Shown: positions 3,001 through 62,906 of the stretch, piece by piece
Layout: every line of letters begins with the position of its first letter
Numbering within the stretch: position 1 is the stretch's first letter
Position numbers and translations under genes: made by a program
Assembly (NCBI GenBank): GCA_903944345.1
Contig: CAJARJ010000013.1
Span: forward strand, 58,672 to 122,671
DNA: 64,000 nucleotides
Direction of reading: 5' to 3'
DNA from: Candidatus Omnitrophota bacterium
GTDB lineage: Bacteria > Omnitrophota > Gorgyraeia > Zapsychrales > Fredricksoniimonadaceae
The notes under the pieces: generated by a model
What the model was told of the DNA's origin: nothing
What the model saw: the letters and a program-made list of their open reading frames with translations, nothing else
Database searches by the model: none

Positions 3001-6000
3001 CCATATTGCATCTGCTCGCCCGCATTCTCGAATGGAAAACGCAAATTGACATTTCCCATCAACTGCCACAAAGGAGTAACACCTTTGAATGTAATGCGGT
3101 CAAAAAATCCAGGGATAGCGCGCAAAGAATCGTACAGACCCACACTAAACACTGTCTTTCTCTGCATCTGATTCTCTTCGTTAGCAGCCTCGACATCGGT
3201 CCAGTTAATCGTAAGCGTATTGATAATCCCTTGAACCGGATCTTTGTCCGTATGATACAGCTTGGTCTGGTTACGGTTGGGGTGCATGAGGCCGTAATTA
3301 TAAAGTTCCATACCGATATCCAGAAGACGCAATGGCCCCAGAACCGTGGAAATATCAGAAATCGGAGCACCATTGACAGTGCCACCGAACCCTTTAACAA
3401 TCTGGGTGGCTTCAGCAACGCTCTTGAAAGGATGATTGATATTAAGCATGAACCCCAGAGAAGGATCACCGCTCGGGGTTCCAAGAGGAACTGAAGCCAG
3501 AGGATAATTATAATCCATGACCCAGGTCAGGCTGGCTGGCAAATCCTGCGCACCAAATCCCACGCCACCCAAGGCTTGCAGTCTGCGCATTTCCTGGGTA
3601 AGAAACATATGCTGCTGGGTAAAAGTCTTTTTCTTTTCTTCGGCAATCCGTGCTTTGGAGCGGGCTTGTTCCTGTTCGTAAGCCTGCCGGGCTTTTCTGG
3701 TTTGTTCCTGTTCCCGGCGCATTTCTGCTGCCTGGGTTTTTCTTTGGGCCAGAGTTTCTACCACATCAGCCAGTTCCTCGGCGATTTCCATCCGCCCGGG
3801 AGCTTTTCTGACGGCGTCTCTGGCAGTGTCAAAACGTTTAAAATAACCGGGGTCTCCCTGTTCACTGACGCCTCTCCATGCAGCCAGCGCGCGTCTTTCA
3901 TCTCCCCCGGCATCCTTCAAATGCAAACGGATCAGTTCTTTGGCAAATTTCTTGTAGGCGGGGCCGAATTTAACCGGATCAAAACCGCCTGTCCCGCCAT
4001 AGTCAAAATCAGGATTGTACCCGGGGCTTCCAATTCTGCCCGTATGCTTGAAAAACTGTTTGTAAATTGGCTCCAAAACCTGACGGAAGAAATCAGCCGA
4101 CTCTTTGGACATCCGGCCTCGTGCCACGGTATCTCGAGCCAGCGTATAAGTGATCTGAACCGGGAAGGCGGCAGAAGAGACTTTTCCGGATTTGGGATCA
4201 CCAAAAGTGCGAATCCAGGGATTATCCAGGCCTGCGGTTTCCGCATACTGGATAGAAAAATACATGGCCGAAACCGTTGCCTCCAGATCATTAAGGCTGT
4301 CCATCGACTCAATTGATCTGAAATATTCAGCCTCCTCATCCAGCGTAGAGCGGTTTGCCGATACCGGCAAAAGAGTTCTCCTGCTGGCATCTCTGGCCTC
4401 TTCGACATCTCTGGCATCAGTCGCCGGCTTGACTGACGGAGCCGAACCTGCAGATTCAATATAAGCCGTGATCACTTTCCCATTCGCCGGACGTATCCCT
4501 CTGGGAAGCTCCATATTCAAATTGGCCACCGGCTCAAGCCGAATCCAGGTGCCCGCACGAAACACCTTGGAAGCCCCGGCCACTTGTAATTCCCGCTTTG
4601 TTAAAGGATCATTTGCCCCCAGTTGACGCCAGGTTCCGTCTTTAAAATCAACCGCCTGTTCCCGGACTTCTCCGCTGAAACGATCAATAACCGCAACAGC
4701 CTGCGTCTCTGCGGCGGGGGCAACAGTCGATGCCCCTGCGGCCACAGCACTGCTCACACTTGACGCCGCACGGGCGCCTAACTCTCTGGATGTCGCGACC
4801 CCCTGGGCAAGAGTGCTGTCGGTGTATCCGGCAACAACCATTTTCTTGCCCTGATAAAGCACTGTGCGAACCACCATATCTTTCATATCAGCATCCGAAG
4901 AGCTGTATTCTCTTAACAGAACCCGGGCATCCAGATCTGAAAGGTTACGAAGGCCCTGCGCGGTATTGATAACGCCTATGCCAAGATCCCTCGCACGCAC
5001 CAGCTCACCTGACGCGGCAGTCAGAACACCGGAAGAATTAAAACGATCCACCAGATTAATTTTTGTCTGGTCTGACGGAGAAACGGGTTGACCGGAGGTT
5101 GGCTGTCCTCCGGCAACTGCCAGAACATCGGGCAGATGCAGCATATCCGGCCCTGCGGAAGGAGGAATTGTTTGCACCTCTGCAACCGGAGTTGGCGCGG
5201 GAGCCTGTTGCGCAATGGCTGCTGCGGCAGGAGCCACGGCACTGGACACTTGCAACGCCAACATTAAAGAAAGAACCCATTTACGCCAACCGAACACGGA
5301 AGTTCGAGGCGACTTCCCGCGGGATTGCCAGATACGGGAGAATTCGGTGAGAGCATACGCTCCCATAAGCCTGAGCGACATAAAATACGGCGACCATGTT
5401 TTGGGACTGGCGGCAGTCGAAAAACGATCGCTGGTTGTACGAAAATCATAAAGCTCGCGCAAGATAGCTTTCTTGACATCCCGGCCCAGGGCACTGCGAT
5501 TAAGCCTCGCAATCACCGCCTCATTGGCCAAATCCTTGAATGTAACCCGGGCCTTGAGCAGTTCAACCTGTAAAGCGGCTCTCTGCTTGGGGGTTAATAC
5601 GCCCTTTGCAGCCATCGCGGCAAGCCCGCGGAAAGGCAAATCTGTTTTAACCAGCCATCTGGCGGCATTACGGTGAGCCTGAACAATATTTTTGGCCTCA
5701 CCATAGCTCTCATCATGCCAGGCACGCACATCGTCAACCGTAGAAAAAGCTCCCTCGGTACGCACCGGAACATACGCTTGCATCTGTAAAACCAGCCGGG
5801 CTGCTATGTCCAGCGGCTGTGCCCCACGGATGCCCGAAAAATAATCTCCGGGTGCCCACTCAAACCACATGGTCTCGGCCTTGCCGCGAGCGAGTCTTTT
5901 CTGCCTGGCATCAGCCAGCTGTTTACGGGTGTTTGCGATCAGCTGACGGACACGTTGCAGCCGATTTTGCACCGACTGTCTTTTTGCCGAAACTAAAGCT

Positions 6001-7217: not shown

Positions 7218-7409
7218 AAGTCACATCCCGGTAGAGATTGTCAGATTCCGGTTAAAGACCAGCGTCTTCTCTTATAAACAGCTATATTGCGAAGTTTTAT
7301 CCTTTACATGTATATACTATAAGTGAGATAAAAGCAAGTCCCGGAAATTAATACATGTCAAAAGAATGTAACGAATGCTTTATTCTGAAGAATTAAGGGG
7401 ACAAAAAGA

Positions 7410-23943: not shown

Positions 23944-24255
23944 CTAGAAAGAATAATAATTCGTAATACTGCTGACAGCTTTGGACATAACCAGGCCCAG
24001 GCCCCAGCTGAGAACAACAACCAGAACAGAAACAATAATCTTGGTCTGCCGGCTGTAATAAGGATTAAACCAGACCAGCGGTAACGCCAAAAAAAGTAAA
24101 AGAAGATGCATGCTGATAACCGTCATATCCCGGAAATACCACGGGCGCTCCGCCTTCTGCCCGCGACGTTGATCCAGAAATTCTCCGCAATGCTTGCATT
24201 TAACCGCTTCCTGCTGGATTTCTTCAGCACAAAACGGACATTTTTTGGTGCTCAT
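23944..24255 (-). CDS. Zinc-ribbon domain membrane protein (hypothetical)
   Basis: CPFCAEEI..CKHCGE CxxC pair followed by two transmembrane helices; ATG at 24255. Confidence 0.5.
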   Translation of the reverse strand: MSTKKCPFCAEEIQQEAVKCKHCGEFLDQRRGQKAERPWYFRDMTVISMHLLLLFLALPLVWFNPYYSRQTKIIVSVLVVVLSWGLGLVMSKAVSSITNYYSF

Positions 24256-24391
24256 GAACTGTCCTATCCTTTCCGGATATTGGCGGATCAACGTTCATCC
24301 GCTCATCCTGTTGGAAAATTCGGAATATATCCACGATCAGTTTATCATCAATGCCCTTAAAAACTCAACAGGTATGGTTCTTTGCAAGAAA

Positions 24392-26092
24392 TCAAGGCTG
24401 GTGCTGCGGCGGCTCCACAAAATTCTGCAACGGAAGAATCTGCAGGAGCAAAGGAAAATAACCGGCTGATTCCTGATACGCCTCCGGAAGAAAATCCGAC
24501 GATGTGTTGAAGTCCTCGGCCGCACGGACAATATCCAGCCTGCGTTCGATACCGGCCAGATCCACTCCGCCTTTATCCATACGCCAGTTACGCGACACCA
24601 GCTGTAACAAACGCTCGAGATCGGCCGTCATTTCACTTGTGCTCTGATAACGCTGCTGCGGTTTTTCGGCCAGAGCCTTTCTGACCATTGCTCTTATCCT
24701 CAGAAACACATCCTCCCGGTCTCTGGTCTCAACCCGCGTGTCAAGCCACAGCCGGAAAACAGGAACAGAACCCCTCTGCCCCTCCTGCAACGGACTCATG
24801 GCAGTCTGCATAAGCAGCATTCCCAAAGCATAAATATCGCGCACCGCGTTCCAGCGCTCCGGAACCTTAACAGCCCCCGGACTATCCTCCGGCGGGACAT
24901 ACATAGGCACTCCGGTAACCAGGTCTTCGGATGTGCGCAGAGAACCCAGACCGACCGCCATATCCAGATCAATAACCCGCACTCGTCCCCGGCTGTCGAT
25001 CATGATATTGTCCGGCTTGATATCACAAGACACATACCCTGCCTGGTGAACTTCCCCGACCGCGATAAGAAGTGCACGCAACAGTCTCAGCCGCGCTGTC
25101 AGCCCCATATCAGCATGGGCGTAGAAGTATTCCCCGAAAGTCTGGCCATCGATATATTCCGTCACCAGATAACTGCGTTCCTGATCATGAAAGTATTCAA
25201 CAAACCTGACAACCGCCCCGTCACGGCCGGAAGCGGAATATTTCATGGTAATATCCTTTAAAATCCGGGCTTCATTGGCTTGAAGCTGTGCAAGGCTCGA
25301 CTGACGATCAGACTTTGTGGATGGGGTTTTAAGAATATATTTCTTGCCGTCTTTCTCGGCCAGATAAACTGCAAACCGCCCCTTGTCCTGCAACAGGCGC
25401 AAAACGGCATAACCTGCCACCACCGGCTGACCGGACTGATGTGTGGCCATGGAGCTGTCCGCCCCCTGTTCAGGCATAGCCTTGATCGGCTGCAGAATAA
25501 CATCTAGCACGGCCGCATCATTCACCAAACGTTCCAATTCAGACTGATCCGGGGCGCCCTCTTTTCGCAAGGCCAACTGAGCCATATCAAAATTCATTCC
25601 CCCTGAGAAATACCTGCGCACAACAACCTCGCCGGTTGGAATATCCCGCTCCTCGCGGAGCAGGTCGAACGCCCCCTGCTCAAAAGTCCGGGCGTACTGC
25701 TGCCAGATGCGCTCGGCCAAACCGGGATCATCAATAGCAATACCAGTCACCTTCCCGCGATCCACATATTCCTGATGCAAACGCCCGGTTGTCATGCGTT
25801 GTTTGTACCATGCCGCCAGAATCAAAGCAGAATAAATCCGGCGTAACGGGATAAATTCTGCCCCTGTATCCACTCGTTCCTGAAGAAGAGGAATCACCTG
25901 CGTGAGCATAACCTCTTGCGCCATCCCGGCGGCCCCTCCCTCCAGCATAACTTTCAGTCGCGCCGAACGCACAAGAACCATACCAGATGTTTTATCTTCA
26001 TAAACTCCTGCGCTCTGCGGAACAATCCAGACACGCTGCCAGACGTCAAGGGGGGATATCAGTTGTTCCATACATGGCCGCCGCGCGTGCAT
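24392..26092 (-). CDS. Family-paralog::Ser/Thr protein kinase fusion, downstream reading frame (rest of the conserved N-domain, kinase domain, C-terminal GGVDL module)
   Basis: ..RVWIVPQSAGVYEDK..LKVMLE..MLTQVIPLLQERVDTGAEF..LAAWYKQ..RRYFSGG then a kinase domain (YILKTPS, CDIKPDNIMID, DLDMAVG, VPPE), ending ..DKGGVDLAGIERRLDIV.. Confidence 0.75.
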   Translation of the reverse strand: MHARRPCMEQLISPLDVWQRVWIVPQSAGVYEDKTSGMVLVRSARLKVMLEGGAAGMAQEVMLTQVIPLLQERVDTGAEFIPLRRIYSALILAAWYKQRMTTGRLHQEYVDRGKVTGIAIDDPGLAERIWQQYARTFEQGAFDLLREERDIPTGEVVVRRYFSGGMNFDMAQLALRKEGAPDQSELERLVNDAAVLDVILQPIKAMPEQGADSSMATHQSGQPVVAGYAVLRLLQDKGRFAVYLAEKDGKKYILKTPSTKSDRQSSLAQLQANEARILKDITMKYSASGRDGAVVRFVEYFHDQERSYLVTEYIDGQTFGEYFYAHADMGLTARLRLLRALLIAVGEVHQAGYVSCDIKPDNIMIDSRGRVRVIDLDMAVGLGSLRTSEDLVTGVPMYVPPEDSPGAVKVPERWNAVRDIYALGMLLMQTAMSPLQEGQRGSVPVFRLWLDTRVETRDREDVFLRIRAMVRKALAEKPQQRYQSTSEMTADLERLLQLVSRNWRMDKGGVDLAGIERRLDIVRAAEDFNTSSDFLPEAYQESAGYFPLLLQILPLQNFVEPPQHQP

Positions 26093-26540
26093 AAAGCTCT
26101 TTCCAGAAGGCTTTGCCCGTTTCCCCCTGAGGATTAAGAGCTTCCGCCATCATTTGTTTAAGCGCATAATCCTGGCTGAGCAGATCACGCCCCAATCCTG
26201 TCCGGGCGAGGGGTTGCGGCAGAATACGATCCTGTTCATCCGGCTGCAGATTGACCCAAAGGTCCTGCCCTGGAATCGTCAGGGCAGCAAAAAAATATTT
26301 AATCAGAAGCATAGCTTCCTCATCACCGGAAACCTGCTTGCTGACAATAAAACGGAAACGTAAAGGGTCATTGCTGAAAATCTTGATCCCTGATAGATAC
26401 GAAGCATCAACAGGATTGGCAACAGGCCCCTGAACAAACAAAGCCTCTGCCCTGGCGTAAGAGCTCACCGTCAAGTGAACTGCAACACACAAAAGAGTTA
26501 CTGTTCTGGCCAGATCTGTCACAAAATGATGATTCTTCAT
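26046..26540 (-). CDS. Family-paralog::Ser/Thr kinase fusion, upstream reading frame (signal peptide plus first 130 aa of the conserved N-domain); out of frame with 24392..26092
   Basis: MKNHHFVTDLARTVTLLCVAVHLTVSSYARA signal peptide; ..LWVNLQPDEQDRILPQP..LLSQDYALKQ..FWKELYARAAAMYGTTDIPP*. The frame break falls exactly on the C6 (plus-strand G6) run at 26050-26055. Confidence 0.7.
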   Translation of the reverse strand: MKNHHFVTDLARTVTLLCVAVHLTVSSYARAEALFVQGPVANPVDASYLSGIKIFSNDPLRFRFIVSKQVSGDEEAMLLIKYFFAALTIPGQDLWVNLQPDEQDRILPQPLARTGLGRDLLSQDYALKQMMAEALNPQGETGKAFWKELYARAAAMYGTTDIPP

Positions 26541-26694
26541 TTTCCTGAACAAATTACAGGATCAGTTTGGGAATGTTGCATAATATGTCAGTATAGTGAA
26601 TAGTATGGCAAGTATTGATGAAAAAACACCATCTGTCAAGTTGCTCTATCAGAGGAGATTTGTGCGGGAGGAAAAATCACGTTTGCAAAAGAAA

Positions 26695-28265: not shown

Positions 28266-29608
28266 CCTTGCTGAAAAAGTGAAATATCCATCAGTTTCCT
28301 GTTGGCCGGAGACTGGCGCAGCGTCTGGGAAAATCCGCCCAGGGTCTCTTTCAGGCGCAGAAACTCCGTATCCTGCAGAACAGGAATATTGTCTGTCCCC
28401 TTGTTCTCGAGCGCGTCAATCACAAACTGAATGGTTATCTGATGAATGTCACGGGCCGGATGAAACGAAGACTCCTTGTTGGCCGCATCACGCAATTCAG
28501 CCAGGATACCTGTTCCGGTCAGTTCAAAAAGAATGGTTCTGACCAGCCTGACCGGGATGTCCAGCACATCCGAAATTCCGCTGGTGGTCAAAGGCATCTG
28601 TCCGGCGGCAAAACGGCCAATCACCAGACTGGCGATCCGCAGGGACAAAAGTTTCTTGAACGCAGGGCTCACTTCCAGGCAGTCATGCTCGAACTCATAG
28701 GTGTCCGCATTCTGCTGCGCAAAAGAAACCTCCGCGCCAAACAAAACTATCCGCCAACTCAACTGAAGCCAGACCAGAAACAGGGGCAGCGCCGCAAAAC
28801 TGCCATAAATCACATTCATCTTTCCCACACCAATCTGGAAATGAATATAGAGCATCTGGACAAGCTGATAAATTGTTCCGGCAATGACCCCGCCTGTTAT
28901 TCCCGCGAAAAGATTCACCCGGGTGTTGGGCATAAACAAATAAAGAAACGAAAACAACAGCCAGAGCATCACAAAAGGCAGCAGCTTGAGCGATAAAAGA
29001 ATAACCGGAGCCAGCGGCCCCAGAAAGACCAGTTTATCGACAATCATCTGGATCTGACTGGCCACAAAGACCGTAACACCTCCGGAAGCTACCAGAAAGA
29101 ACGGACAGATCATCATAATGGAAAGATAATCGCTGATCTTGCGGCCCAAAGGACGCCCCACCTTGACCCCCCAGATATCATTAAAAGAAGTTTCGATGGA
29201 ATTCAGCACCTTGATGACCGTCCAGAAAAGCAGGATGACACCAACTCCGGCAATAACCCCGCCGCTGGTATCAGCCAGGAGATTATTGGCAAAACCGATG
29301 ATCTGCCCCAGAATATCTTCCTGCCCGGGAAACTTGTCCAAGAGCTGTGTCTCGAGGGTTTTCTCCAGCCCAAACCCCTTGGCAATGCCAAAAGCCATAG
29401 CCATGATCGGCACGATAGAAATAAGGGTATAAAACGTCAAGGCTGAAGCGTTCAGCTGACACTGGTTCCCCCTGAACTCTCTGACCGCCAGCACAATGAC
29501 CCGTAATTGTTGAATCAGAAACGAACGCCGGCGGGGCAGCTTCCTGACGGGAATACGCCAGATGTCCCGCTCGAGAAAATCAACAATTTTTTTTATCGCC
29601 AGAGGCAT
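28262..29608 (-). CDS. YihY/BrkB family inner-membrane protein with a C-terminal cytoplasmic extension
   Basis: 448 aa; ..ALTFYTLISIVP.., six-transmembrane YihY core (..FGAEVSFA..) followed by a soluble domain of about 150 aa. Confidence 0.75.
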   Translation of the reverse strand: MPLAIKKIVDFLERDIWRIPVRKLPRRRSFLIQQLRVIVLAVREFRGNQCQLNASALTFYTLISIVPIMAMAFGIAKGFGLEKTLETQLLDKFPGQEDILGQIIGFANNLLADTSGGVIAGVGVILLFWTVIKVLNSIETSFNDIWGVKVGRPLGRKISDYLSIMMICPFFLVASGGVTVFVASQIQMIVDKLVFLGPLAPVILLSLKLLPFVMLWLLFSFLYLFMPNTRVNLFAGITGGVIAGTIYQLVQMLYIHFQIGVGKMNVIYGSFAALPLFLVWLQLSWRIVLFGAEVSFAQQNADTYEFEHDCLEVSPAFKKLLSLRIASLVIGRFAAGQMPLTTSGISDVLDIPVRLVRTILFELTGTGILAELRDAANKESSFHPARDIHQITIQFVIDALENKGTDNIPVLQDTEFLRLKETLGGFSQTLRQSPANRKLMDISLFQQG

Positions 29609-46656: not shown

Positions 46657-48681
46657 ATGATCCAGCGCTTATATCACTCAAGATGGTTTAAAAAAACAAC
46701 TTGCGCCGTCCTGGCGACATTTGTCACGCTCATCCCGGCACAATCAGGCTACACACAGGTGGTTGCCCCCATGCCGGCACCGGGCCAGATGACGCGAGTA
46801 ACCGGAAAATTTGAGCCTGCCCGCATGGCAGGAATGCGCATAGATCCCCGGAACCCGTTCAATTTCTATTTTCTCATAAACAAAGGCGAACAGTCTTTAA
46901 CACTTGAGGCCCAAAAGGCTGAATACAACAAACTCATAAAATATTTTCTGGCTTCCCTGACCATTCCGAACCGGGATATGTGGGTTAACCTGTCTCCGTC
47001 GGAGTCCGACCGCATAATCCCGGATAACTTTGCCCGGACTGAAACAGGGCACGCCCTTCTGGCACAAGATTATCTTTTAAAACAATTCACGTCTTCATTA
47101 ATGCACCCGGAAGACCCTGTCGGCAAAGAATTCTGGACAAAGATCTACGCGAAAGCGTTCGAAAAATTCGGCACAACCGAGATTCCGATAGATACCTTCA
47201 ACAAAGTGTGGATCACCGCCGACAGGGCGGATATCTATCAAAAAGACGATACCGCTCTTCTGGTCGACAGCCATCTGAAAGTGATGCTGCAGCAGGATTT
47301 CATGGCCATCAGACAGAACAAGGAACAATACGCAGTCGCGGCCGACACCCTGGCGCAAGAGAGCGACGGGGCACGCCAAATGACATCGGATCTTGTGCGG
47401 GAAGTGATCATTCCGGTCATGGAAAACGAGATAAACACCGGCAGCAACTTTGCCCAGGTTCGCCAGATATACAATTCCATGATCCTGGCAACCTGGTACA
47501 AGAAAACTCTCCGGAAAAGCCTGCTCGGACAGATCTACGCCGACAAAAGCAAAGCAGCCGGGATTGAAACAAGTGACCCGCAAGCCAGAGAGAAAATTTA
47601 TCAACAGTATCTCGAAGCGTTCCAACTGGGCGCCTTCAATTATATAAAAAATGACACAAATCCCTCAACACAGGAAACATTACCCAGAAAATATTTTTCG
47701 GGAGGAGTTGCCCTCTTGCCAGACGCAGCCATGATCAAGGTCGTCGATGAACGTTCAGCCAGAAATCAATTTCTTGGTCTGAGGAATACTGTAGAAGTTG
47801 TTACCACCCTGTTCACCAAAACCAGCCGACTCTTCCCTCTTTTACTGCTCCCCGCCAACAGCTTGACTTACGCATCAACAACTCTCCCGTCTACCGAACC
47901 GCCTGACACAGATCTCATCGCGACAACCCTCGGAATGATCCATTCACAGACCGCAGAATTCATGAATCTGCTGAACAACGAAGCAACCGGCTGGGCGCTG
48001 CTGGGAATATTCCTCGTTTCCGTGCCCCTGATCCTGTACCATGCCCACAAACTCAGGATCAAGATCGCACTTGCTGTCCAGATTATCGATACCAGGACAG
48101 ACTTGTTGTCCAGGGAAGACCTTTTAGCAATACTAAAAGAGGTATACCGGTCAGATGCAACCACAAGCTCGGATCTGGACATTCAGTTTATTACCAATAG
48201 CATGCAAAAGCAGAATATCGATATTCAAACCGGTCTCGCGGCATTAATATCGTTCTTCAGCCTGGATCAGGAACACCGCTTGCTTGAGGTCAATGCAACT
48301 GCCTACATAGCCAACATAAAAACAAACGATCTCACATCGAAAAGAAACAGATTGAATCCTCTCCGTCACGCGGCTGAGATTTCCGACATTGAAAGAAGAA
48401 TACACCAGAGCGAACAATCTTATATGCAACTGGAAAAAGCCATAGACGCATTAACACCCCCCGATTCTGCCGCCCTGCAGGCGCCTACCGGCGGTATTGA
48501 TCTGGATGAAAAATATCTGACCATGAATATCCGTGTGGACGGAAAAGGAATGCCTTTGCCGGTGTCCATGCAGGATCCGGCGATGCTTGATATCGACGGG
48601 CTCTCACCGTTCATTCGTGAGATTGAACCTGTGACCCCCTTGAATATGCCGGTATTCCTGGAACTGACCCAAAGCCCGTAA
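46657..48681 (+). CDS. Family paralog P2 (674 aa): signal peptide, conserved N-domain, hydrophobic segment, C-terminal GGIDL module
   Basis: ..GMRIDPRNPFNFYF..WVNLSPSESDRIIPDNF..LLAQDYLLKQ..FGTTEIPIDTFNKVWITADRADIY..LKVMLQQD..REVIIPVMENEIN..NSMILATWYK..PRKYFSGG..; transmembrane-like GWALLGIFLVSVPLILY; ends ..APTGGIDLDEKY..PLPV.. Confidence 0.8.
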   Translation: MIQRLYHSRWFKKTTCAVLATFVTLIPAQSGYTQVVAPMPAPGQMTRVTGKFEPARMAGMRIDPRNPFNFYFLINKGEQSLTLEAQKAEYNKLIKYFLASLTIPNRDMWVNLSPSESDRIIPDNFARTETGHALLAQDYLLKQFTSSLMHPEDPVGKEFWTKIYAKAFEKFGTTEIPIDTFNKVWITADRADIYQKDDTALLVDSHLKVMLQQDFMAIRQNKEQYAVAADTLAQESDGARQMTSDLVREVIIPVMENEINTGSNFAQVRQIYNSMILATWYKKTLRKSLLGQIYADKSKAAGIETSDPQAREKIYQQYLEAFQLGAFNYIKNDTNPSTQETLPRKYFSGGVALLPDAAMIKVVDERSARNQFLGLRNTVEVVTTLFTKTSRLFPLLLLPANSLTYASTTLPSTEPPDTDLIATTLGMIHSQTAEFMNLLNNEATGWALLGIFLVSVPLILYHAHKLRIKIALAVQIIDTRTDLLSREDLLAILKEVYRSDATTSSDLDIQFITNSMQKQNIDIQTGLAALISFFSLDQEHRLLEVNATAYIANIKTNDLTSKRNRLNPLRHAAEISDIERRIHQSEQSYMQLEKAIDALTPPDSAALQAPTGGIDLDEKYLTMNIRVDGKGMPLPVSMQDPAMLDIDGLSPFIREIEPVTPLNMPVFLELTQSP

Positions 48682-48787: not shown

Positions 48788-50977
48788 ATGTTCAAACGTT
48801 TGTGTGCAATCCTACTAATCGTGTCCGTTCTTGTCACTTCCACAATTCCCTCGGCGGCTTTGGCCCAGATGTCGTCTTTACCCGTCCCCGGATCCATGCT
48901 GGGGAAAACCCCGGATTTCTCTCCTCTGATAATGCAGGGAGTTCGCGTCCATCCCGATAATGCTCTCCTGTTTGATTTTATTATCGATTCCGGAGACTCA
49001 GGACTCGCCACTGACAGTGCCGCTTTCAGACAGGAAGCCGGAAAACTCGTCAATTATTTTCTGGCGTCGCTCACTATAAAAGAAGAAGACCTTTGGGTTA
49101 ACCTTTCCCCGTTTGAACACAACCGCATCCTCTCCCCCGATCTGGAAAAAACAGAACTGGGCAGTGACATGCTGGCACAAGACTACATCCTGAAACAATT
49201 AAGCGCTTCACTGATCTATCCGGAAGAAAATCTGGGAGAAACGTTCTGGAACCGGGTCTACGCCCGTGCCCGGGAAGAATTCGGCACCACAAACATACCG
49301 GTCGACACCTTCCACAAAATATGGATCAAGGCAGACAAGGTCCGGGTTATCGAACACGAGGGGGCCGCCTATGTGGCCGGAGCACACCTGAAAGTCATGC
49401 TGGAACAGGACTATCTGGCCATAAGCCGCACACCTTCCGACGGCGAAGGCAGCGATATTGCCCGTGATATCCTGCGCGAAGTCATTGTTCCTGAAATAGA
49501 AAAAGAAGTCAACCGGGGCACCCATTTTGCCCCGCTCAGGCAGATGTTCAATTCCATGATCCTTGCCACATGGTACAAGCTGGCACTCAAAGACGCCCTG
49601 CTCAACCGGATTTACAGCGACCGCGGAAAAACCGGCGGCGTACTGGCAGACGATCCGGCAGAAGCAGAGAAAATCTATGAACGCTATCTGGAAGCTTACA
49701 AAAAAGGCGTTTTCAACTATATCAAGGAAACCCCCGGAGCGAATGAGGAACCTACTTTGCCAAGAAAATATTTCTCGGGTGGAGTGGACGGGAACCTGGC
49801 TAAAATACTGGAACGTGTGGATGCCGCTGCTGCTCCGACAGAACTGACAGCTCCTGGCAACAGTCGCCGCTCCGCCGTTACGGTGCGGCTGGAAACAGTT
49901 GCCCAACCGGTCGAAGACTCCGTTCCTGCAAAAGAAACCCAACAACGCATAGAAAACTTCCTGGCGGGACACTCCGAAACGGCAACAGATGCGTCCATGC
50001 TGTCTGATTTAAACGAACTGATCAAAACTATCCGCGAACTTCCGGTCGACATGTTCGAAAAACGTTTCGAGGAACTCTCCCTGTTGACCAGTAAAAAACA
50101 GTTGCGCGTCCTGCGTGATTTGTTCGACAAAATAAGAGGCCTGGACGAGCCTGGCGTTGAGCATCTGATCTCCCGGATAAAAGCCCTGGGTCTCAGGCAG
50201 GCCGAAATGGATGAACTGGTTGAAAATCTCGAAAAAACTGTCTGGATGCGAAAAGAAGCTTCCGGCCCGGCTGTCTCCACCGATCGTTACATCACCCTTC
50301 TGAAAAAAAAGATTGCCCTGAGCCTGTCATTTATAGTTCTGGGATTTATATCCGGGAGCTTTGCCGTTATCGACATGCTAGACAACAGAACAGAATGGAC
50401 TTCTCTGCTGGCCATTTTTGCCTCGTACATTTTTTTTATACTGGCCAGGCATCTGGACAAATATATTAAAAGCATGAACGAGCAACCGGCCAAACGTACG
50501 CTGGGCCAGAACGATCTTGTGAATCTGGCGGAACAGTTTCTTGTCCTTTATCAGAATGGCGAAGCGATACCGGGTGCAACCGAAGAGCTCGCGCGGGACG
50601 CCGTCAATTACGAAATCTATTTCTGGCTGCTGCACGAAAGATACATTGCGCCCGATGATCTGCCTGCTGCTGTTCGTGGTGTCAGCCAACAGCTGTCGCT
50701 AACACCATTAAAAGGCCCTGGCAGTTACTGGAGCATTACCGTCAATCACCCTGACCCTCTGGACAGTAACACCGACCAGTCCCAGGCCGCCAAGGGTGGT
50801 ATCGACCTGAATGCCAAAACCATGAGCCTGGATATTTCCAGAACAGCGGCAAGCGCCGCGATCAGAATGGATCAATCTGCCTTCGACGGGTTTGAGGACA
50901 ACCTGTTTTCGGGACTGCAGGGGATTATTATCAGGATCGTTCCGGTTGAAAACCCGGCCGTATTTCTGGGCGTCTGA
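48788..50977 (+). CDS. Family paralog P3 (729 aa): signal peptide, conserved N-domain, two hydrophobic segments, C-terminal GGIDLN module
   Basis: ..GVRVHPDNALLFDF..WVNLSPFEHNRILSPDL..LAQDYILKQ..FGTTNIPVDTFHKIWIKADK..LKVMLEQD..REVIVPEIEKEVN..NSMILATWYK..PRKYFSGG..; ends ..AAKGGIDLNAKT..IVPVENPAVFLGV. Confidence 0.8.
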   Translation: MFKRLCAILLIVSVLVTSTIPSAALAQMSSLPVPGSMLGKTPDFSPLIMQGVRVHPDNALLFDFIIDSGDSGLATDSAAFRQEAGKLVNYFLASLTIKEEDLWVNLSPFEHNRILSPDLEKTELGSDMLAQDYILKQLSASLIYPEENLGETFWNRVYARAREEFGTTNIPVDTFHKIWIKADKVRVIEHEGAAYVAGAHLKVMLEQDYLAISRTPSDGEGSDIARDILREVIVPEIEKEVNRGTHFAPLRQMFNSMILATWYKLALKDALLNRIYSDRGKTGGVLADDPAEAEKIYERYLEAYKKGVFNYIKETPGANEEPTLPRKYFSGGVDGNLAKILERVDAAAAPTELTAPGNSRRSAVTVRLETVAQPVEDSVPAKETQQRIENFLAGHSETATDASMLSDLNELIKTIRELPVDMFEKRFEELSLLTSKKQLRVLRDLFDKIRGLDEPGVEHLISRIKALGLRQAEMDELVENLEKTVWMRKEASGPAVSTDRYITLLKKKIALSLSFIVLGFISGSFAVIDMLDNRTEWTSLLAIFASYIFFILARHLDKYIKSMNEQPAKRTLGQNDLVNLAEQFLVLYQNGEAIPGATEELARDAVNYEIYFWLLHERYIAPDDLPAAVRGVSQQLSLTPLKGPGSYWSITVNHPDPLDSNTDQSQAAKGGIDLNAKTMSLDISRTAASAAIRMDQSAFDGFEDNLFSGLQGIIIRIVPVENPAVFLGV

Positions 50978-55144: not shown

Positions 55145-58100
55145 TTAAAACCTCACAAAATCCGTTAGCGCGGCCTGCGCGGTAACACCAACAATAACCG
55201 GAACAATCCCCGTTGCATGCTGACGCAGCTGCTGCATGGTTTCTTCACTCAGCTCAAAGACTGAAGCCGATGCCAGATCATACCCCGATCCAGCCGCTCT
55301 TTCAATCAGAAGCCTGATATTATCCGGATTAAGATCGATACCACCCGGAGTTAATGCTGACTGGGCGTGATCGGCTCCTACAACAACCTGTCGCGCCCGG
55401 GCAAGCGCCTCATTATTGTTCCTGTACCCTCTGAGATACTCCTTGAACTCAGGCGGCATACTGTTGCTGTTGGCTGACTGCTTGAAATCGGCGATCGGCC
55501 CGGCGGCAACAACAACCAGACGACGGCGGCCATAGGCGCGCTCAAGAACAGCCCGTAAAGCCGGATGATCAGAAATTTCATCGGAATGCCCTGAAAAAAA
55601 ACTGTCCAGACGCGCACCAAAGGCTTCCGCAGTCCCGTCATCCTGAAAAACCCACAAATCTTTCTCCCTGAGCTTGACCATAAGCCCGTCAGTCACAAGC
55701 CGGTTCAATATTCCGGTCCCTTCATAGCCCAACTCGTTAAGGGTGGCCGAGGACACCATCCCCGAAAGCACAACATAAACACTTATCGACTGCCCCTTGC
55801 TCTGAAGGCGTTCAATGTGCGGCAAGCCATTCTGGTTGGAATCAATCTTGCCTTCCAGAAAATCATTGATCAACCCCTCAATCACGCGCCGCTCGCGCGG
55901 TTGCTGCAAATAGTCACCATTCACCCATCCTCCGTCGACAACCGCGACATCATATCCTTTGATCCGCAAAGGCTGCTCCTGTTTTAAATACCGCTCGGGC
56001 GTAACACCCCAGAGCTTCCAGTAACCCTGCAGAACACTTTGCTCAATCTGCATCTGCCTGCTCATATGCGGTAGAAGTTTGTCGTACCCTTCCCGTGCAA
56101 GCCGACCATTCTTGACTATGGTTCGTGTTTCGGAGAGAGCATTAAAATAAGCTTCGCCATTGCCCTCGCTATCCAGAAAACGCCGCACAGACTCCGGCGG
56201 AGCTTGCGCCGAACGGGCCAACGTACTGACCACATCAGCATAATTCCCCTCGTACTGCAATCCGGAAGCAAGAATACCGTCAAGTCCCTCGGAGATGAGA
56301 ACCCCTTCCTCAATGGCAGCAGACTCCTCGTCCTGCCAGGGAATTTCGACGAAAGCCAGAAAACGCGAACCCATGCTACCCTCGGGCCGCCAACGATCAA
56401 TATCCTCAAAGGTCAGACCCTGCGCTTTGGAGGCAAGAAATACCCGTTCTGGCGTTACATTGACTCCACTCCGGGCAAGACTGATAACCGCGTCCAGCAG
56501 ACGTGTATCCTCGGGCTCCAGCTGCAGAATCTCTGCCTCGCCCAGAATAAAAGCCAGCTTGTCTGCAGGCGGTTCCCCGTTAGAAAACCCCGAAGATTCC
56601 CGCAAAAACCTGGTGACCCAGGTATTCATCCACAATCCAAAGCGCTCTCTGAGTGCCGCTTGCAATATTTTACGATCAACCTGTGCATCGGTAATATCTG
56701 TAAAAGCCAAATCATTCTTGTACTGACGCACCACCTTGCGCAAAACATCTTTAAGGCTGGTACCTGGACGGGCATGCTTTATCATGACCTCGTAATGACG
56801 AATCATGCGCTCAATCAACGGGCGCTGCAAAGGAGACGGGGCTACCGGGCGAGAAACCTCTATGGTTTTCTTGATCTTCTCGGTCCTGGCATAGGACTGC
56901 AGAAACAAATCCACATTATAGTACCCGGCTTCAAACAAAAGATCCGCAACCCGTCTTTCCACATCCACAAATTGCTTCTTATGCCGCGGCTGGGGAATAT
57001 CCTGCTCCCGGATATTGGCCAAAACCTGTAACAAGTCTTGCCACCGTGAACTTCTGATAATATCCGAGAGTTCCTCCTCAAGCTGTCCTCTTCTGAAAGG
57101 ATTCGGAATCCAGGAATCTTCTCCCAGGTCTTCGATAAATATAAGATCTTTCAACGGGAGCGGTTCAGCAACAAATGCGGCGAACAAACGCAGAAACAAC
57201 AGGCCCCTGCGGGCTTCCTGAATAATCTGCTGATTTTTTGATCTCCCGCCTTCGGCCAGAATCTCGAGCAATTTATTACCGACTGCAGCCGTCTTATCCT
57301 GCGCGCCAAACGCCTCCTGGAACTTTAAGAGCAGTCCGGAAGAAAGATCCTCTTTCCTGAAAACTTTCAGCATTTTCTCCAACCCCAGCCACTCTTCCAT
57401 ATTGACTTTAGAAAATAAATGCCCCATTCTCATAACAAGTGCCTGACGGAATTCCACAACATCCAGATCCTTGAGAAATTCGACTACCAGCCCGGCGAAT
57501 TCAAAAGACTTTCCCTTTACAATCGCGTTTTCAATCTTTTCAAGCTGCGGACGCAACTTCTTGATCTGCCCCTTGTGCTTGGGAAGAAATATGGCCGAGT
57601 CCCGTGTAAAGTCTGCAACATTATAATGAAGCCCCCCTTGCATCTTGATCCCCTGCGCGGCGTCGGTCTGAACCTGCAGATCAGAAGAGACCCTGTAATA
57701 ATCCCGCGTGTCCGCAGGAAGGTCCAAATCCATCGCGGCGTCGCCATTGAGAATCACTCCGCCGGACATATATTTGCGGGGGATAGTGTCGCCATTCCAG
57801 GGGTCAGTTTCTTCCCGAATCAGGTTAAAAACACCCTGCCTGAAACTGTCCATATAAGCTGTCCAGACCGTTTCGGCAGAAACCCTCCCGAAGCTGTCCA
57901 TCCCCTGCGTTTTACGGCTGTCAGAGTACACCCGCGCCACAACAGAATCATACAGCTTTTTCTTGTACCACGTGGCCAATACCAGACAGCGATAAATCTC
58001 TCTCACCCTGGCAAAACGCGGGCTTTCATTAACCTCGCGCTCAAGAGCGGGTATAACCACTTCGCGCATGGCACGTAAAGCCGCGGTACGCGCCGGATTG

Positions 58101-58900
58101 TTATATCCCGGACCAATTTCAGCCGAAAACTGCGGATAAGCCGCCGAAGCCCTGTAATCGTCCTCAAGCAAAACCTTCAGACGAGTTTCCGTCACAACTG
58201 CAGCAGCACCCGGCGCGGCGACGTCCCGGGAAAAGTTTTCAAAAATACGCGCGCTGTCAGAAGTTATCCAGACCTTGTTGAAGGTATCAACCGGCAAATC
58301 GGTTGTGCCAAACTTTTCGTGCAAATCAGCATAGACACCGGCCCAAAAAGCTTTCCCCTGGCTGTCGTCAGGATGAACCAACTCGGCGGCCACGCGCTTG
58401 AGCAAATAATCCATAACCAGCAAGTCCTGCCCCATGCCTGTTCGCGCGAGGTCCGGGGTCGTCACCCGGTCTTTTTCATAGGGGGAAAGATTGATCCACA
58501 AATCCTGGGGAGGAATAACCAGCGAAGAAAGAAAGTACCTGATCTGACGAAGGGAGTCCTGGCTGTTATCAATCTCGGAACTCCCCCAGGCAGCATTGCG
58601 CTCGAAAATGAAATCCATCCGTAAAGGATTGCGGGGGTCAACCCTGACACCCTTCATGATCACGCCGGAGGGGGCTGTAATATCTTCAAGCAGAGGATCG
58701 CCGGGCAACGCAAGTGGAAGAACAGATTGTGCGCTAACAGGAACTACGGAGCCCAAAAAAAGGATGGCGCACAAAAATAACCGGAAGAAAATTCCGAAAG
58801 GTGAAAGCATCTGGCCAGAACAATTTAGAAGTGACATGGTTTTTGACAAATCCGGGTTAAAACTACAGGAAAGTATAATATATTTTAAGCTTTCCTGCAC
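55145..58900 (-). CDS. Family paralog P4 (about 1,230-1,251 aa): signal peptide, conserved N-domain, long unique central region, C-terminal GGIDLN module
   Basis: ..GVRVDPRNPLRMDF..WINLSPYEKDRVTTPDL..LLVMDYLLKR..FGTTDLPVDTFNKVWITSD..LKVLLEDD..REVVIPALEREVN..LVLATWYK..PRKYMSGG..; ends ..LTPGGIDLNPDN..IVPVIVGV... The track ORF starts at a GTG at 58900; ATGs at 58837 and 58810 are alternatives (the signal peptide follows 58810). Confidence 0.8.
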   Translation of the reverse strand: MQESLKYIILSCSFNPDLSKTMSLLNCSGQMLSPFGIFFRLFLCAILFLGSVVPVSAQSVLPLALPGDPLLEDITAPSGVIMKGVRVDPRNPLRMDFIFERNAAWGSSEIDNSQDSLRQIRYFLSSLVIPPQDLWINLSPYEKDRVTTPDLARTGMGQDLLVMDYLLKRVAAELVHPDDSQGKAFWAGVYADLHEKFGTTDLPVDTFNKVWITSDSARIFENFSRDVAAPGAAAVVTETRLKVLLEDDYRASAAYPQFSAEIGPGYNNPARTAALRAMREVVIPALEREVNESPRFARVREIYRCLVLATWYKKKLYDSVVARVYSDSRKTQGMDSFGRVSAETVWTAYMDSFRQGVFNLIREETDPWNGDTIPRKYMSGGVILNGDAAMDLDLPADTRDYYRVSSDLQVQTDAAQGIKMQGGLHYNVADFTRDSAIFLPKHKGQIKKLRPQLEKIENAIVKGKSFEFAGLVVEFLKDLDVVEFRQALVMRMGHLFSKVNMEEWLGLEKMLKVFRKEDLSSGLLLKFQEAFGAQDKTAAVGNKLLEILAEGGRSKNQQIIQEARRGLLFLRLFAAFVAEPLPLKDLIFIEDLGEDSWIPNPFRRGQLEEELSDIIRSSRWQDLLQVLANIREQDIPQPRHKKQFVDVERRVADLLFEAGYYNVDLFLQSYARTEKIKKTIEVSRPVAPSPLQRPLIERMIRHYEVMIKHARPGTSLKDVLRKVVRQYKNDLAFTDITDAQVDRKILQAALRERFGLWMNTWVTRFLRESSGFSNGEPPADKLAFILGEAEILQLEPEDTRLLDAVISLARSGVNVTPERVFLASKAQGLTFEDIDRWRPEGSMGSRFLAFVEIPWQDEESAAIEEGVLISEGLDGILASGLQYEGNYADVVSTLARSAQAPPESVRRFLDSEGNGEAYFNALSETRTIVKNGRLAREGYDKLLPHMSRQMQIEQSVLQGYWKLWGVTPERYLKQEQPLRIKGYDVAVVDGGWVNGDYLQQPRERRVIEGLINDFLEGKIDSNQNGLPHIERLQSKGQSISVYVVLSGMVSSATLNELGYEGTGILNRLVTDGLMVKLREKDLWVFQDDGTAEAFGARLDSFFSGHSDEISDHPALRAVLERAYGRRRLVVVAAGPIADFKQSANSNSMPPEFKEYLRGYRNNNEALARARQVVVGADHAQSALTPGGIDLNPDNIRLLIERAAGSGYDLASASVFELSEETMQQLRQHATGIVPVIVGVTAQAALTDFVRF

Positions 58901-59797: not shown

Positions 59798-62167
59798 ATG
59801 CGCTATGTATTATCCAGTCAATCCGATCAGTTGAGGACAAGAAAGCCCGGCACACACATCATCAACGCGGTCATGACCGCCATATTCCTCTTTCAAAGCT
59901 GTGTTGCACCCAACGTATGGGCGCAGTCCCTTCAGATGCCATCATCAGTCCCCTCTACAAAACCAGCGTATATCCCCGCGAGCCTGCAAGGTCTGGTTCT
60001 TGATTACAAAGAACCCTTTAAACTCAATTTTCTCGTTAGCCCCGGGCAATCCCCTCTTTCTCCTGTCGAAAAGAAAGAAGAATACGCCCGCCTCGTAAGA
60101 TATTTCTTGGCCGCCCTTGCCATCCCCGACAACGACCAGTGGGTCAACCTTTCACCTTTTGAAAAAGAACGCATTATTTCCGGGAACTTCGGCCGCACGG
60201 AAATGGGCCGCGACCTGCTGCGGCAGGACTATCAACTCAAACAATTATCCTCCAGCCTCACTCATCCCGACTCTGCAACAGGGAAAATATTCTGGGAACA
60301 TCTGTATGCCGAATTTTTGCGCACATTCGGAACAACCCAAATCCCCGCCGAGGCCTTGAACAAGGTGTGGATCATGCCGGACAAGGCCGTAATCCATGAA
60401 AACAGCCGAACCCGTTCGGTACACATTCTGGAACAACGATTAAAAATTGTCAGCGATGTGGATCATGCCGCGCTTCGCGGAGGACAACCGGACAGATCTC
60501 CTCTTGAGGATATTTACCAGGATGCCCTGCGCAAAACCATCCTGCCACTAATCGAAAAAGAAATTAATGAAAGCCGCGACTTCGCCATGCTCCGGCAGAT
60601 TTACAGCAGCATGTTACTGGCCGCATGGTTCAAGCGGGCCCTCAAGGATTCGGTCCTCACCAATCTTTACGGCGACAAATCGAAAACCACAGGCATCGAT
60701 ACAAATCCGCTTGTCAACCAGGCCATCTACCGTGATTACGTTGACATGTTCCGCAAGGGAGTCTTTGATTTCATCCGGGACGATCTGGACACAGCAACAG
60801 GAGACATCCTCCCCCGCAGGTACTTCTCGGGCGGGGCTGTTTCTGTCGGATCAGCTTTCGAGGATACAGTGACGGTCCTGACCGATCAGTCGCAAAGAAT
60901 TGCAGATCCCAACGAGGAACTGGTTACAGCAAGCCTGGTCTCTCCCCAACAAATCCCCCGACGCCTGGCCCCAACAGATATCCCCGTCGTTCTAATACTG
61001 CTGTCTCTCTGGCAGGGACATACCAATGCCCCCAATAAACAGGTTGTAATTCCTTTCTCGCCGATATACGCACAGTTCTTGCCTGAACAAAACGCTATCC
61101 CGGGGACACGTCTTCTGGACGACTCCCCGGCAGCAGGTCTTGAAATTGTTGATCGTCACGATTTGATCTCCTGGCTCGTTGGCCTGAAGAATTTCAAACG
61201 GGCCAAGAAACTGGCCCAGATAGCCTTGCGCCAAAGACATGAACTCTTGGCCCTGGCTCTTTCCTTACCTCTCTCTGAAACATTGTCAGACGACCAACAA
61301 ACCCGTGTCCTGACGTTTTCAGTCAATCACCGGGATTACACCGTCGAGATCATCAGTCACAACAAACCTTTCACATATAATGGTACTGATTACGATCCGC
61401 TGCCCGGAAGCATGATAAAAATCACAAAAGACAGAGGGCATGAAATTCTCCTGGAAATCCTGAAGGGCGAAACAACACCCGCGCAATGGAAGACAGACGT
61501 TGTTCCTTTCCTGCTGGCCCGGGTTTTTCCAGGAATTGAAGTTTCCGGATTCGATCAACCCGCCGAAACATTCGAATTGGCAGCGTCCAAGGACGACATG
61601 ACCAGCGACGACAATACTCCTTCCTTAAACGTAACTGCAAATACACTGGAACAAATTTTTTCTTTACCAGCGTCGAAAACAGAACTCGTTTCAAGAAAAG
61701 ATGCCCTGGAACTGGCTTTTATGGTGGAAACACCGGAGGGCAAAGCTCTCCTGACGGCCCTGCCTCTTTACGCCCCTGAAGATAAAGACCGCACATTTGT
61801 CGTCGGTTTACAGGTCACTGTCTCCACACTCACAGAAACCGGGCTTCACGAAATACTTTTTGCCAATACACACGATCTTTCCCTTATCAGCCGTCTGAAC
61901 AGAGAAAATCCGTCGTGGCGTAATTTTGCTGTTTTCGCAAGCGCGCTGGTTGCCGGCAATCCCGACACAAACAGCAGTCCTGGCAGCCTCGCAGCCGCCG
62001 CTCCTGGTGGTGTTGACTTCAGCGAAGCAGCACTGGATTTGTTGATCAAACGAGATGGCAGCGGGATTCCTCTGCCTGTGGGTCAGCAAAACCTGACGAA
62101 TATAAGAATCAACGGACTGGTGCCGGTCATTATGAACATCCGTCCGGCAGTCGAAATTAATTGGTAA
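59798..62167 (+). CDS. Family paralog P5 (789 aa): conserved N-domain, unique central region, C-terminal GGVDF module
   Basis: ..WVNLSPFEKERIISGNF..LLRQDYQLKQ..FGTTQIPAEALNKVWIMPDKAVI..KTILPLIEKEIN..SSMLLAAWFK..PRRYFSGG..; ends ..AAPGGVDFSEAALDLLIKRDGSGIPLPV..VPVIMNIRPAVEINW; ATG with a GGAG ribosome-binding site. Confidence 0.8.
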   Translation: MRYVLSSQSDQLRTRKPGTHIINAVMTAIFLFQSCVAPNVWAQSLQMPSSVPSTKPAYIPASLQGLVLDYKEPFKLNFLVSPGQSPLSPVEKKEEYARLVRYFLAALAIPDNDQWVNLSPFEKERIISGNFGRTEMGRDLLRQDYQLKQLSSSLTHPDSATGKIFWEHLYAEFLRTFGTTQIPAEALNKVWIMPDKAVIHENSRTRSVHILEQRLKIVSDVDHAALRGGQPDRSPLEDIYQDALRKTILPLIEKEINESRDFAMLRQIYSSMLLAAWFKRALKDSVLTNLYGDKSKTTGIDTNPLVNQAIYRDYVDMFRKGVFDFIRDDLDTATGDILPRRYFSGGAVSVGSAFEDTVTVLTDQSQRIADPNEELVTASLVSPQQIPRRLAPTDIPVVLILLSLWQGHTNAPNKQVVIPFSPIYAQFLPEQNAIPGTRLLDDSPAAGLEIVDRHDLISWLVGLKNFKRAKKLAQIALRQRHELLALALSLPLSETLSDDQQTRVLTFSVNHRDYTVEIISHNKPFTYNGTDYDPLPGSMIKITKDRGHEILLEILKGETTPAQWKTDVVPFLLARVFPGIEVSGFDQPAETFELAASKDDMTSDDNTPSLNVTANTLEQIFSLPASKTELVSRKDALELAFMVETPEGKALLTALPLYAPEDKDRTFVVGLQVTVSTLTETGLHEILFANTHDLSLISRLNRENPSWRNFAVFASALVAGNPDTNSSPGSLAAAAPGGVDFSEAALDLLIKRDGSGIPLPVGQQNLTNIRINGLVPVIMNIRPAVEINW

Positions 62168-62868: not shown

Positions 62869-62869
62869 A

Positions 62870-62878
62870 CCCCCCCCC
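62870..62878. promoter_or_regulatory. C9 homopolymer (G9 on the coding strand) 1 nt upstream of the ATG of the 62320..62868 gene, within its ribosome-binding-site window
   Basis: Plus strand gcatACCCCCCCCCtc; coding strand GAGGGGGGGGGT-ATG; a candidate slipped-strand phase-variation tract. Confidence 0.5.
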
Positions 62879-62906
62879 TCTTTAAAAATTAATTGGCGAT
62901 TAATTG

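Follow-up and report, generated by a model that had tools for sequence, protein, structure and literature searches.

The stretch of DNA analyzed here comprises 64,000 nucleotides (nt) of contig CAJARJ010000013.1 from the Candidatus Omnitrophota bacterium assembly GCA_903944345.1 and is referred to as the window. On its minus strand it carries a gene for a putatively exported protein kinase, which is split in two by a frameshift. As judged from the layout of the open reading frames (ORFs) and the sequence, this gene extends from an ATG at 26540 to a stop at 24392. The 5' fragment (26046..26540, minus strand) comprises 164 amino acids (aa) from the ATG and terminates at a TGA (26046-26048) directly after a homopolymer of six C residues (26050-26055; G6 on the plus strand), which is one C above the in-frame C5. 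This ORF ends in ...AAAMYGTTDIPP and a stop, i.e., in ...YGTTDIPP followed by TGA. From an alternative TTG start, the 5' ORF would span 26046..26552 (minus strand, 168 aa); the ATG at 26538-26540 is the likelier start, being preceded by AGGAAA and used in the JGI and ENA gene calls (164 aa). The 3' fragment, a 566-aa ORF (24392..26092, minus strand; stop at 24392-24394), lies in the +1 frame relative to the 5' fragment and overlaps the 5' ORF. The mRNA reads AUC CCC CCU UGA C at the tract, the length of which sets the reading frame: the C6 state leads to a stop at codon 165 and the C5 state to a full ORF. Removal of one C restores a single ORF of 715 aa from the ATG (719 aa from the TTG) with the junction ...YGTTDIPLDVWQRVWI..., and in tblastn against the window this junction aligned free of gaps with ...FGTTDIPVDTFNKVWI... 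of the paralogs, as had been claimed in an earlier note made from the letters of the window. Both orthologs from sister lineages show DIPLD at the junction position. Considering the gap-free paralog alignment and this DIPLD, we conclude that the in-frame ancestral state was C5 (ATC CCC CTT) and that the window has gained one C. For annotation, this means that the two ORFs should be merged and flagged as one frameshifted gene, instead of standing as a "hypothetical protein" and a "serine/threonine protein kinase."

The repaired protein has a modular organization. At its N terminus lies a Sec-type signal peptide (residues 1-31; 26448..26540, minus strand; MKNHHFVTDLAR / TVTLLCVAVHLTV / SSYARA↓E), which, judged by eye, possesses the charged n-region, hydrophobic h-region, and c-region of a signal peptidase I substrate with A-R-A at -3/-1 before the E, in agreement with the earlier note. 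The orthologs (SCARA↓E) and the paralogs (ALA↓Q, VSA↓Q, VWA↓Q) share this layout, as does the consensus of 80 family sequences (...A↓Q). The signal peptide is followed by the conserved N-domain of the family (residues 32-335 after repair; 25535..26447, minus strand), delimited by tblastn to five paralogs and by the 80-sequence alignment. Twenty-nine columns of this alignment are invariant, including WVNLxP, DYxLK, KVWI, and YFSGG, and the repaired protein, with WVNLQP, DYALKQ, RVWI, YFSGG, and the tail motif KGGVDL, is a member of the family. The frameshift cuts the N-domain at residue 163/164. No Pfam or NCBIfam model was found for the N-domain. An AlphaFold2 model built from 80 homologs (m82e3cd1648ab) reached a predicted local distance difference test (pLDDT) score of 80.9 and a predicted template modeling (TM) score of 0.83 and consists of long helices and two long beta-hairpins; Foldseek detected no significant structural neighbor, the best E values being 0.15 against PDB and 0.02 against BFVD. 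Five of the seven top Foldseek hits in PDB were alpha-pore-forming toxins of the ClyA family (VCA0883/MakA, MakB, MakE, and NheA), all nonsignificant and with TM scores of about 0.1. As a weak lead, these hits raise the possibility that the modeled N-domain could interact with membranes.

At the opposite end, a C-terminal family tail of about 60 aa (24395..24574, minus strand) reads K-GGVDL-AGIERRLDIV...PLLLQILPLQNFV... The tail sequence is KGGVDLAGIERRLDIV...PLLLQILPLQNFV, with ...DKGGVDLAGIE... in the kinase gene and GGIDL or GGVDF in all paralogs of the window. The pattern GG[IVLM]D[LFMI] occurs in the final 100 residues of 55 of 79 family members, and a literature search for the motifs GGIDL, GGIDF, and GGVDL found nothing relevant. 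An AlphaFold2 model of the full-length protein was set aside (pLDDT 62.8, below 45 in the kinase C-lobe, with five kinase-bearing homologs in the alignment). Judging from the sequence, an exported, effector-like kinase is plausible in view of the family architecture and of a conserved signal peptide of the AxA type.

A Hanks-type Ser/Thr kinase domain (residues 391-632; 24644..25369, minus strand) is placed between the N-domain and the GGVDL tail common to the paralogs, where the earlier note had seen it. It matches Pfam PF00069 (Pkinase) with 68.3 bits versus a cut-off of 31.7 (E value 8.9e-19, profile positions 15-253 of 263). The closest solved structures in a PDB sequence search are 4eqm, PknB, and StkP (E values of about 1e-17, approximately 25-30% identity). 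Motifs were mapped by alignment with PknB and 33 generic bacterial kinases; residues 91-279 of the PknB sequence used match the PDB alignment. The beta3 lysine K404 (25328-25330), the alphaC glutamate E423 (25271-25273), the catalytic residues D506 (25022-25024), K508, and N511 (25007-25009), and the Mg-binding D524 (24968-24970; all minus strand) are retained and align to K40, E59, D138, K140, N143, and D156 of PknB. The K, E, D, N, D catalytic set is kept in all five family kinases and in 32-33 of the 33 generic kinases; the same residues are kept in the orthologs and invariant in a distant subfamily of 882-aa kinases (P0004/P0005). This all but rules out a pseudokinase, which the earlier note had named as an outcome that would overturn its proposal. 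The glycine loop is atypical, GxGG being replaced by QDKG with one Gly left (none in P0004/P0005), and HRD is replaced by SCD, making this a non-RD kinase, and DFG by DLD (DFE in the 882-aa relatives). These deviations do not alone make a pseudokinase, and the way in which nucleotide is bound may be unusual. Among the 882-aa relatives, cluster members of 830 and 822 aa were considered as further frameshifts and rejected, as their shorter length reflects alternative start-codon calls.

The window kinase shares the beta3 Lys, the alphaC Glu, D-x-K-x-x-N, and the Mg-binding Asp with PknB of Mycobacterium tuberculosis, StkP of Streptococcus pneumoniae, and 4eqm. However, it is preceded by a signal peptide of the cleavable type and an N-domain of 300 aa and does not form the cytoplasmic portion of a membrane receptor that carries PASTA or other sensor domains. 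None of 16 matches to named kinase families in NCBIfam (PknB_PASTA_kin, LanL/LanKC, MAD6, PglW, LegK1, and others) reached the cut-off, the best scoring 97.3 bits versus 450. A protein-based scan of genome contigs returned, through the pattern DIKPDNIM, only generic kinases from other phyla with 24-32% identity.

The six-C run is present in the window and in all seven further contigs of the same population (8/8 in total). Of these seven loci (L001 to L007), four come from JGI assemblies and three from Logan assemblies of single runs (ERR4222574, ERR4221775, and ERR4221774); all are 99.97-100% identical to the window across 3.7-9.7 kb. They represent one clonal population, sampled in independent libraries and assemblies. 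The ENA records ERZ1426763 and ERZ1426753, which hold no DNA, contain the same calls of 164 and 566 aa. The 3' ORF is found in the public protein collection as the identical entries P0002 and P0121, on up to 14 contigs. No intact protein with at least 90% identity was detected in this collection, the cluster members measuring 559, 566, and 510 aa. The contigs also agree at a second C6 run within these loci (29167-29172) and at every other tract. Scans of JGI metagenomes and GTDB for exact patterns returned no C5 or C7 alleles of either the window site or the sister tract, these collections being evidently without these organisms. A systematic sequencing or assembly error, with a true C5 genome and an intact gene, was among the options of the earlier note. 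Homopolymers are classic sites of error, and clonal contigs would repeat a systematic one, but C6 was recovered in all seven additional contigs from at least two pipelines, including the three single-run assemblies. Moreover, the same pipelines resolve C5 and C6 differently by sample in a sister species while 18 other tracts in coding regions stay constant, so that the two lengths are distinguishable. As independent libraries and two or more assembly pipelines concur, assembly error is all but ruled out, and an error of any kind is the least credible of the explanations considered here.

In a sister species, we found a syntenic ortholog with 79% aa identity. Upstream, the shared neighbors encode DUF748, BrkB, and two ABC-transporter proteins; downstream, they encode a 103-aa zinc-ribbon protein, HAD, Fe-ADH, SNase, and QRPTase. 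This ortholog is intact in 12 loci (709 aa; P0001 and P0124) and split in 10 (161 + 560 aa; P0123 and P0125). Over 2.13 kb, the only difference between the intact and the split gene is CTCAA-C5-G6-AAAC versus C6-G6 at nt ~389, in a tract located approximately 110 nt upstream of the site of the window. The two tracts are not shared: at the position of the sister C5G6 the window reads AAT CCT CAG GGG G, and at the C6 of the window the sister ortholog reads ATT CCG CTG, free of a homopolymer, as does a third lineage. Two haplotypes of the sister gene, distinguished by three single-nucleotide polymorphisms (SNPs) near the 3' end, both occur in intact and split form, and the intact or split state is not tied to flanking SNP mosaics. 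In one assembly series of eight biosamples, SAMN06685568, 573, and 575 harbor the intact form and 569-572 and 574 the split form. As a control, 19 homopolymer tracts, another G6 among them, were compared in the 10-kb sister locus across 22 contigs; the sole variable one is the tract in the kinase gene, barring an intergenic A4/A5 difference in two contigs. The ortholog of the third lineage (L026, SRR14932502; 81% aa identity) carries a +1 insertion at nt ~1940 in nonrepetitive sequence, truncating the protein at 649 aa, immediately ahead of the GGVDL tail. Thus, three lineages show three independent +1 frameshifts, two of them C5-to-C6 changes. The earlier note had advised comparison with closely related genomes; in this comparison, the sister ortholog is polymorphic and that of the third lineage broken, and the C6 tract itself is absent from both.

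Two further features of the sister loci were observed. Diversity is very uneven along the locus: in L008 to L025, the 2.6 kb upstream of the kinase gene, with BrkB and the ABC-transporter genes, have 95 variable positions arranged as a mosaic among contigs. Hardly any variation is seen in the genes downstream or in the kinase gene itself, which has 3 SNPs over 2.13 kb. The sister samples hold a strain mixture. In L012 (SAMN06685575), no HAD-family gene was called downstream of the kinase gene (~5220-5830), and the alignment to the reference locus is broken over about 240 reference bases (7039 to 7277), which looks like a strain-level deletion or rearrangement adjoining the kinase gene.

The polymorphism in the sister species is what gives weight to phase variation at simple sequence repeats (SSRs), the main rival explanation. 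Here, the poly-C run would be a selected, reversible ON/OFF switch, a contingency locus for bet-hedging with an exported kinase, and the window would have been sampled in the OFF phase. Phase-variable SSRs are hypermutable, at 100-10,000 times the basal rate, and reversible, and exported or surface proteins are classic targets of such variation (PMC11868660). The tract in question lies in the 5' third of the ORF, where a change by one base toggles the frame, the gene is otherwise under purifying selection, and of the coding homopolymers in 10 kb of 22 contigs the sister tract alone varies. The occurrence of C5G6 and C6G6 in eight biosamples and on both haplotypes amounts to a four-gamete pattern. 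However, recombination within a strain mixture also yields four gametes, and flanking SNP mosaics are visible. Known poly-G/C switches usually have 7 nt or more, and the tracts considered here, with just 5-6 nt, are below this range. Their positions are lineage specific, and the third lineage is broken at a nonrepeat site. The population of the window is C6 in 8/8 contigs; length variation among near-identical genomes is absent there and present only in the sister species, at another tract. Runs of at least six G or C are rare in the window, which contains eight, and they are not enriched in the six family genes, which hold 3 of the 8 runs and occupy 31% of the window. The other window paralogs are intact in every database copy. 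Taken together with the lack of enrichment of G/C runs, this argues against a family-wide switch. Shorter cluster members of these paralogs were considered as frameshifts and rejected as alternative start-codon calls. In comparison with SSR phase-variable genes of Haemophilus, Neisseria, Campylobacter, and Group A Streptococcus (mga) (PMC11868660), the likeness consists in a poly-C/G run in the 5' part of the ORF, a frame toggled by one base, and coexisting states in the sister species. The differences are the short run, its lineage-dependent position, and the uniform tract length in the population of the window. The slipped-strand switch considered in the earlier note is therefore supported only indirectly, by the coexisting states in the sister species at a different tract, and not by the population of the window, in which only the OFF state was seen. 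The short and unconserved tracts speak against a dedicated phase-variation switch, and the locus does not look like a purpose-built contingency locus. Overall, we regard phase variation as unlikely, although it is the most serious competitor.

The sequence of the tract also brings translational recoding into consideration, by which full-length protein would be produced through a +1 frameshift at AUC-CCC-CCU-UGA-C (within the stretch AACUGAUAUCCCCCCUUGACGUCUGG). In this scenario, tRNA-Pro would slip on CCC-C or CCU-U while the poor stop UGA-C occupies the A site, as in prfB. The required shift is indeed +1, the 0-frame stop follows the slippery run directly, and both conceivable products, DIPLDVW (GTTDIPLDVWQR) and DIPPDVW (GTTDIPPDVWQR), fit the family alignment. 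CC[C/U]-[C/U] sequences are particularly prone to +1 slippage, CCC-C reaching up to ~1% in Escherichia coli, and an empty A site favors slips (PMC4519876). Like the CUU-UGA-C site of prfB (RF2), the window site places a slippery P-site codon before an in-frame UGA followed by C, with a +1 shift reaching the downstream ORF. Unlike prfB, it has no Shine-Dalgarno-like (GGAGG-like) stimulator within 20 nt upstream and is not conserved, both sister orthologs running in frame through ATT CCG CTG GAT. The UGA is a by-product of the C added to CCC CTT GAC, so that the site was created by the insertion itself. Nonprogrammed shifting occurs at ~1% or less (PMC4519876) and would be a leak at most. Recoding as the means of making this protein is thus improbable.

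Even less probable is a functional split, in which a secreted 133-aa N-fragment and a cytoplasmic kinase initiated at an internal ATG (26092 or 26071) would both be made and the kinase be retargeted to the cytoplasm of the producer. Gene callers annotate both pieces, the second being named "serine/threonine protein kinase" by JGI, the kinase domain itself is untouched, and the third lineage loses the tail alone. Nevertheless, the break falls inside a confidently modeled single N-domain, between a helix and a long beta-hairpin, which leaves half a domain on each piece. No evident ribosome-binding site precedes either internal ATG, and the break points differ per lineage, arguing against a selected new architecture.

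Selection on the gene was assessed by the ratio of nonsynonymous to synonymous substitution (dN/dS; Nei-Gojobori). The repaired window gene and the sister ortholog gave 0.23 at dS 0.56, with 0.21 for the kinase domain. Between the two closest lineages, the ratio was 0.37 for the kinase gene and 0.47-0.83 for the N-domain and tail. From the value of 0.23 we infer purifying selection for most of the divergence and a recent lesion. A decaying pseudogene would show several lesions and a dN/dS near 1, and the gene has a single lesion. For seven flanking genes, dN/dS was 0.00-0.18, mostly 0.04-0.11, which is below the 0.23-0.37 of the kinase gene; because of this excess, the gene appears to have been recently or only partly freed from constraint.

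We therefore favor, with a probability of roughly 0.57, the explanation that a recent, genuine slippage frameshift silenced a dispensable and recurrently silenced gene for an exported kinase cargo, belonging to a large uncharacterized Omnitrophota family. The protein would be a modular one, combining a Sec signal, a family N-domain of unknown fold, the kinase as a variable "cargo," and the GGVDL tail. The insertion turning C5 into C6 is most simply attributed to replication slippage. Translation would then stop at residue 164, midway through the N-domain, uncoupling the kinase from its signal peptide and turning the gene OFF. This OFF state would at best be leaky, owing to rare +1 slips of the ribosome at CCC-C/CCU-U before the UGA. 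The event is probably recent in evolutionary terms, because the remaining ORF is intact and has been under purifying selection. Among three sister lineages, the gene was frameshifted independently at least three times, with one of these lesions still segregating, which indicates that it acts as a dispensable accessory. Silencing may have occurred repeatedly at whatever short mutable sites were present, under relaxed or fluctuating selection, plausibly on an effector gene.

Several observations weigh against this explanation. A polymorphism of intact and broken forms on two haplotypes, as found in the sister species, would be expected from a reversible hypermutable switch, recombination in a mixed-strain population being an alternative source. 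A dN/dS of 0.2 reflects long-term constraint, and the gene is thus more than mere junk. That all three lineages are silenced could mean selection for OFF states and not dispensability. The contig-level view leaves room for minority C5 alleles in the population of the window, the contigs of which, being clonal (100% identical), do not represent independent strains. Finally, given the degenerate QDKG glycine loop, SCD, and DLD, the activity of the kinase could be weak or atypical.

A homopolymer indel silencing a gene is, taken alone, ordinary biology. Yet, three breaks in three lineages and one polymorphism constitute a natural knockout series for probing what this gene does, and an exported ATP-dependent kinase would be a concrete candidate for an effector that an uncultured nanobacterial lineage directs at a host. 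Translocated effector kinases include YpkA/YopO of Yersinia, the LegK family of Legionella, and OspG of Shigella with NleH of E. coli, and pathogens commonly lose effector genes through frameshifts. The likeness is that an ATP-requiring kinase routed out of its producer makes sense only if it acts inside another cell. However, these effectors use signals for type III or type IV secretion systems, whereas the window protein has a Sec signal peptide, a conserved N-domain, and a C-terminal tail. The only sequence link to effector kinases is a subthreshold match to LegK1 (E value 3.8e-5, 22.5 bits versus a cut-off of 550). No secretion machinery adjoins the kinase gene.

Five further paralogs of the gene were identified in the window by tblastn, with 32-40% identity and E values of 1e-52 to 1e-64. 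One, on the minus strand, runs from ~7220 to beyond position 1 and combines signal peptide and N-domain in an ORF of more than 2,400 aa that leaves the window. The other four are intact: two on the plus strand encode 674 aa (46657..48681) and 729 aa (48788..50977), the third is a 1,251-aa ORF on the minus strand (55145..58900), the true start of which is probably downstream of the GTG, and the fourth encodes 789 aa on the plus strand (59798..62167). A family profile recovered 10,596 representatives of 50%-identity clusters at an E value of 0.001 or below and 6,997 at 1e-30 or below. Family members include P0006 to P0087 and P0142 to P0276. The N-domain is always N-terminal, and the listed family hits measure 627-2,610 aa; homologs are named in their sources as proteins of Candidatus Omnitrophota/Omnitrophica metagenome-assembled genomes. 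The middle domains are variable. In 42 scanned members, Pkinase (5), RelA_SpoT (2), HATPase_c, Peptidase_M23, Metallophos, and HEAT domains were detected, one middle domain is a complete phosphoglycerate kinase (PGK; E value 4e-82), and precomputed Pfam matches add PF08323, PF03118, PF01661, PF00082, and PF00753. This makes a family of ~7,000 clusters that lacks a Pfam or NCBIfam model, with an N-domain that has no solved structural relative, in a phylum presumed to live on other cells. That its members carry enzymes of cytoplasmic type, ATP-dependent ones among them, behind a signal peptide suggests action in another cell.

Omnitrophota have been proposed to be host dependent or predatory (PMC10066038), and long or giant multi-enzyme ORFs with signal peptides have been reported for the phylum (PMC10066038 and bioRxiv 10.64898/2026.06.07.730766). 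Term searches of these two papers found no description of the N-domain/tail family. The >2,400-aa paralog at the edge of the window carries the same N-domain, and this ties the family to the giant signal-peptide multi-enzyme ORFs. Further points of likeness are the phylum, as given by homolog names, the signal peptide, and the listing of PF08323, PF02518, methyltransferases, and kinases in both groups; they differ in that most N-domain family members have 600-2,600 aa, whereas the giants exceed 20 kb.

A signal peptide and conserved terminal modules around a variable enzymatic middle are also reminiscent of type IX secretion cargo with its C-terminal domain and of polymorphic toxins with a trafficking N-domain and a variable C-terminal toxin. 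It is tempting to speculate that the N-domain and the GGIDL tail might be delivery modules of an unrecognized Sec-dependent effector system of host-dependent Omnitrophota, moving cytoplasmic-type enzymes (kinase, RelA/SpoT, PGK, ATPases, and peptidases) into a partner or prey cell, with cargo genes toggled by short poly-C slippage as bet-hedging against host variation. We consider this full scenario a long shot, less likely than phase variation of the kinase gene itself.

Upstream of the kinase gene, a consensus scan detected the promoter-like sequence TTGACA-17-AATACT (26611..26639, minus strand), a consensus match only, with 10 of 12 positions matching. Directly downstream of the gene (23944-24291, minus strand) lies the small protein called with 103 aa by JGI and ENA. 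At its N terminus, a zinc-ribbon motif, CPFC...CKHC, precedes hydrophobic segments; the protein has no Pfam match and is conserved in position across all three lineages. The longest G/C homopolymer of the window is a G9 on the minus strand, located in the region AGAGGGGGGGGGTATG (62866-62885) that would bind the ribosome for a small minus-strand ORF (MQFLTEELKKQIEKK...), where slippage could modulate translation initiation.

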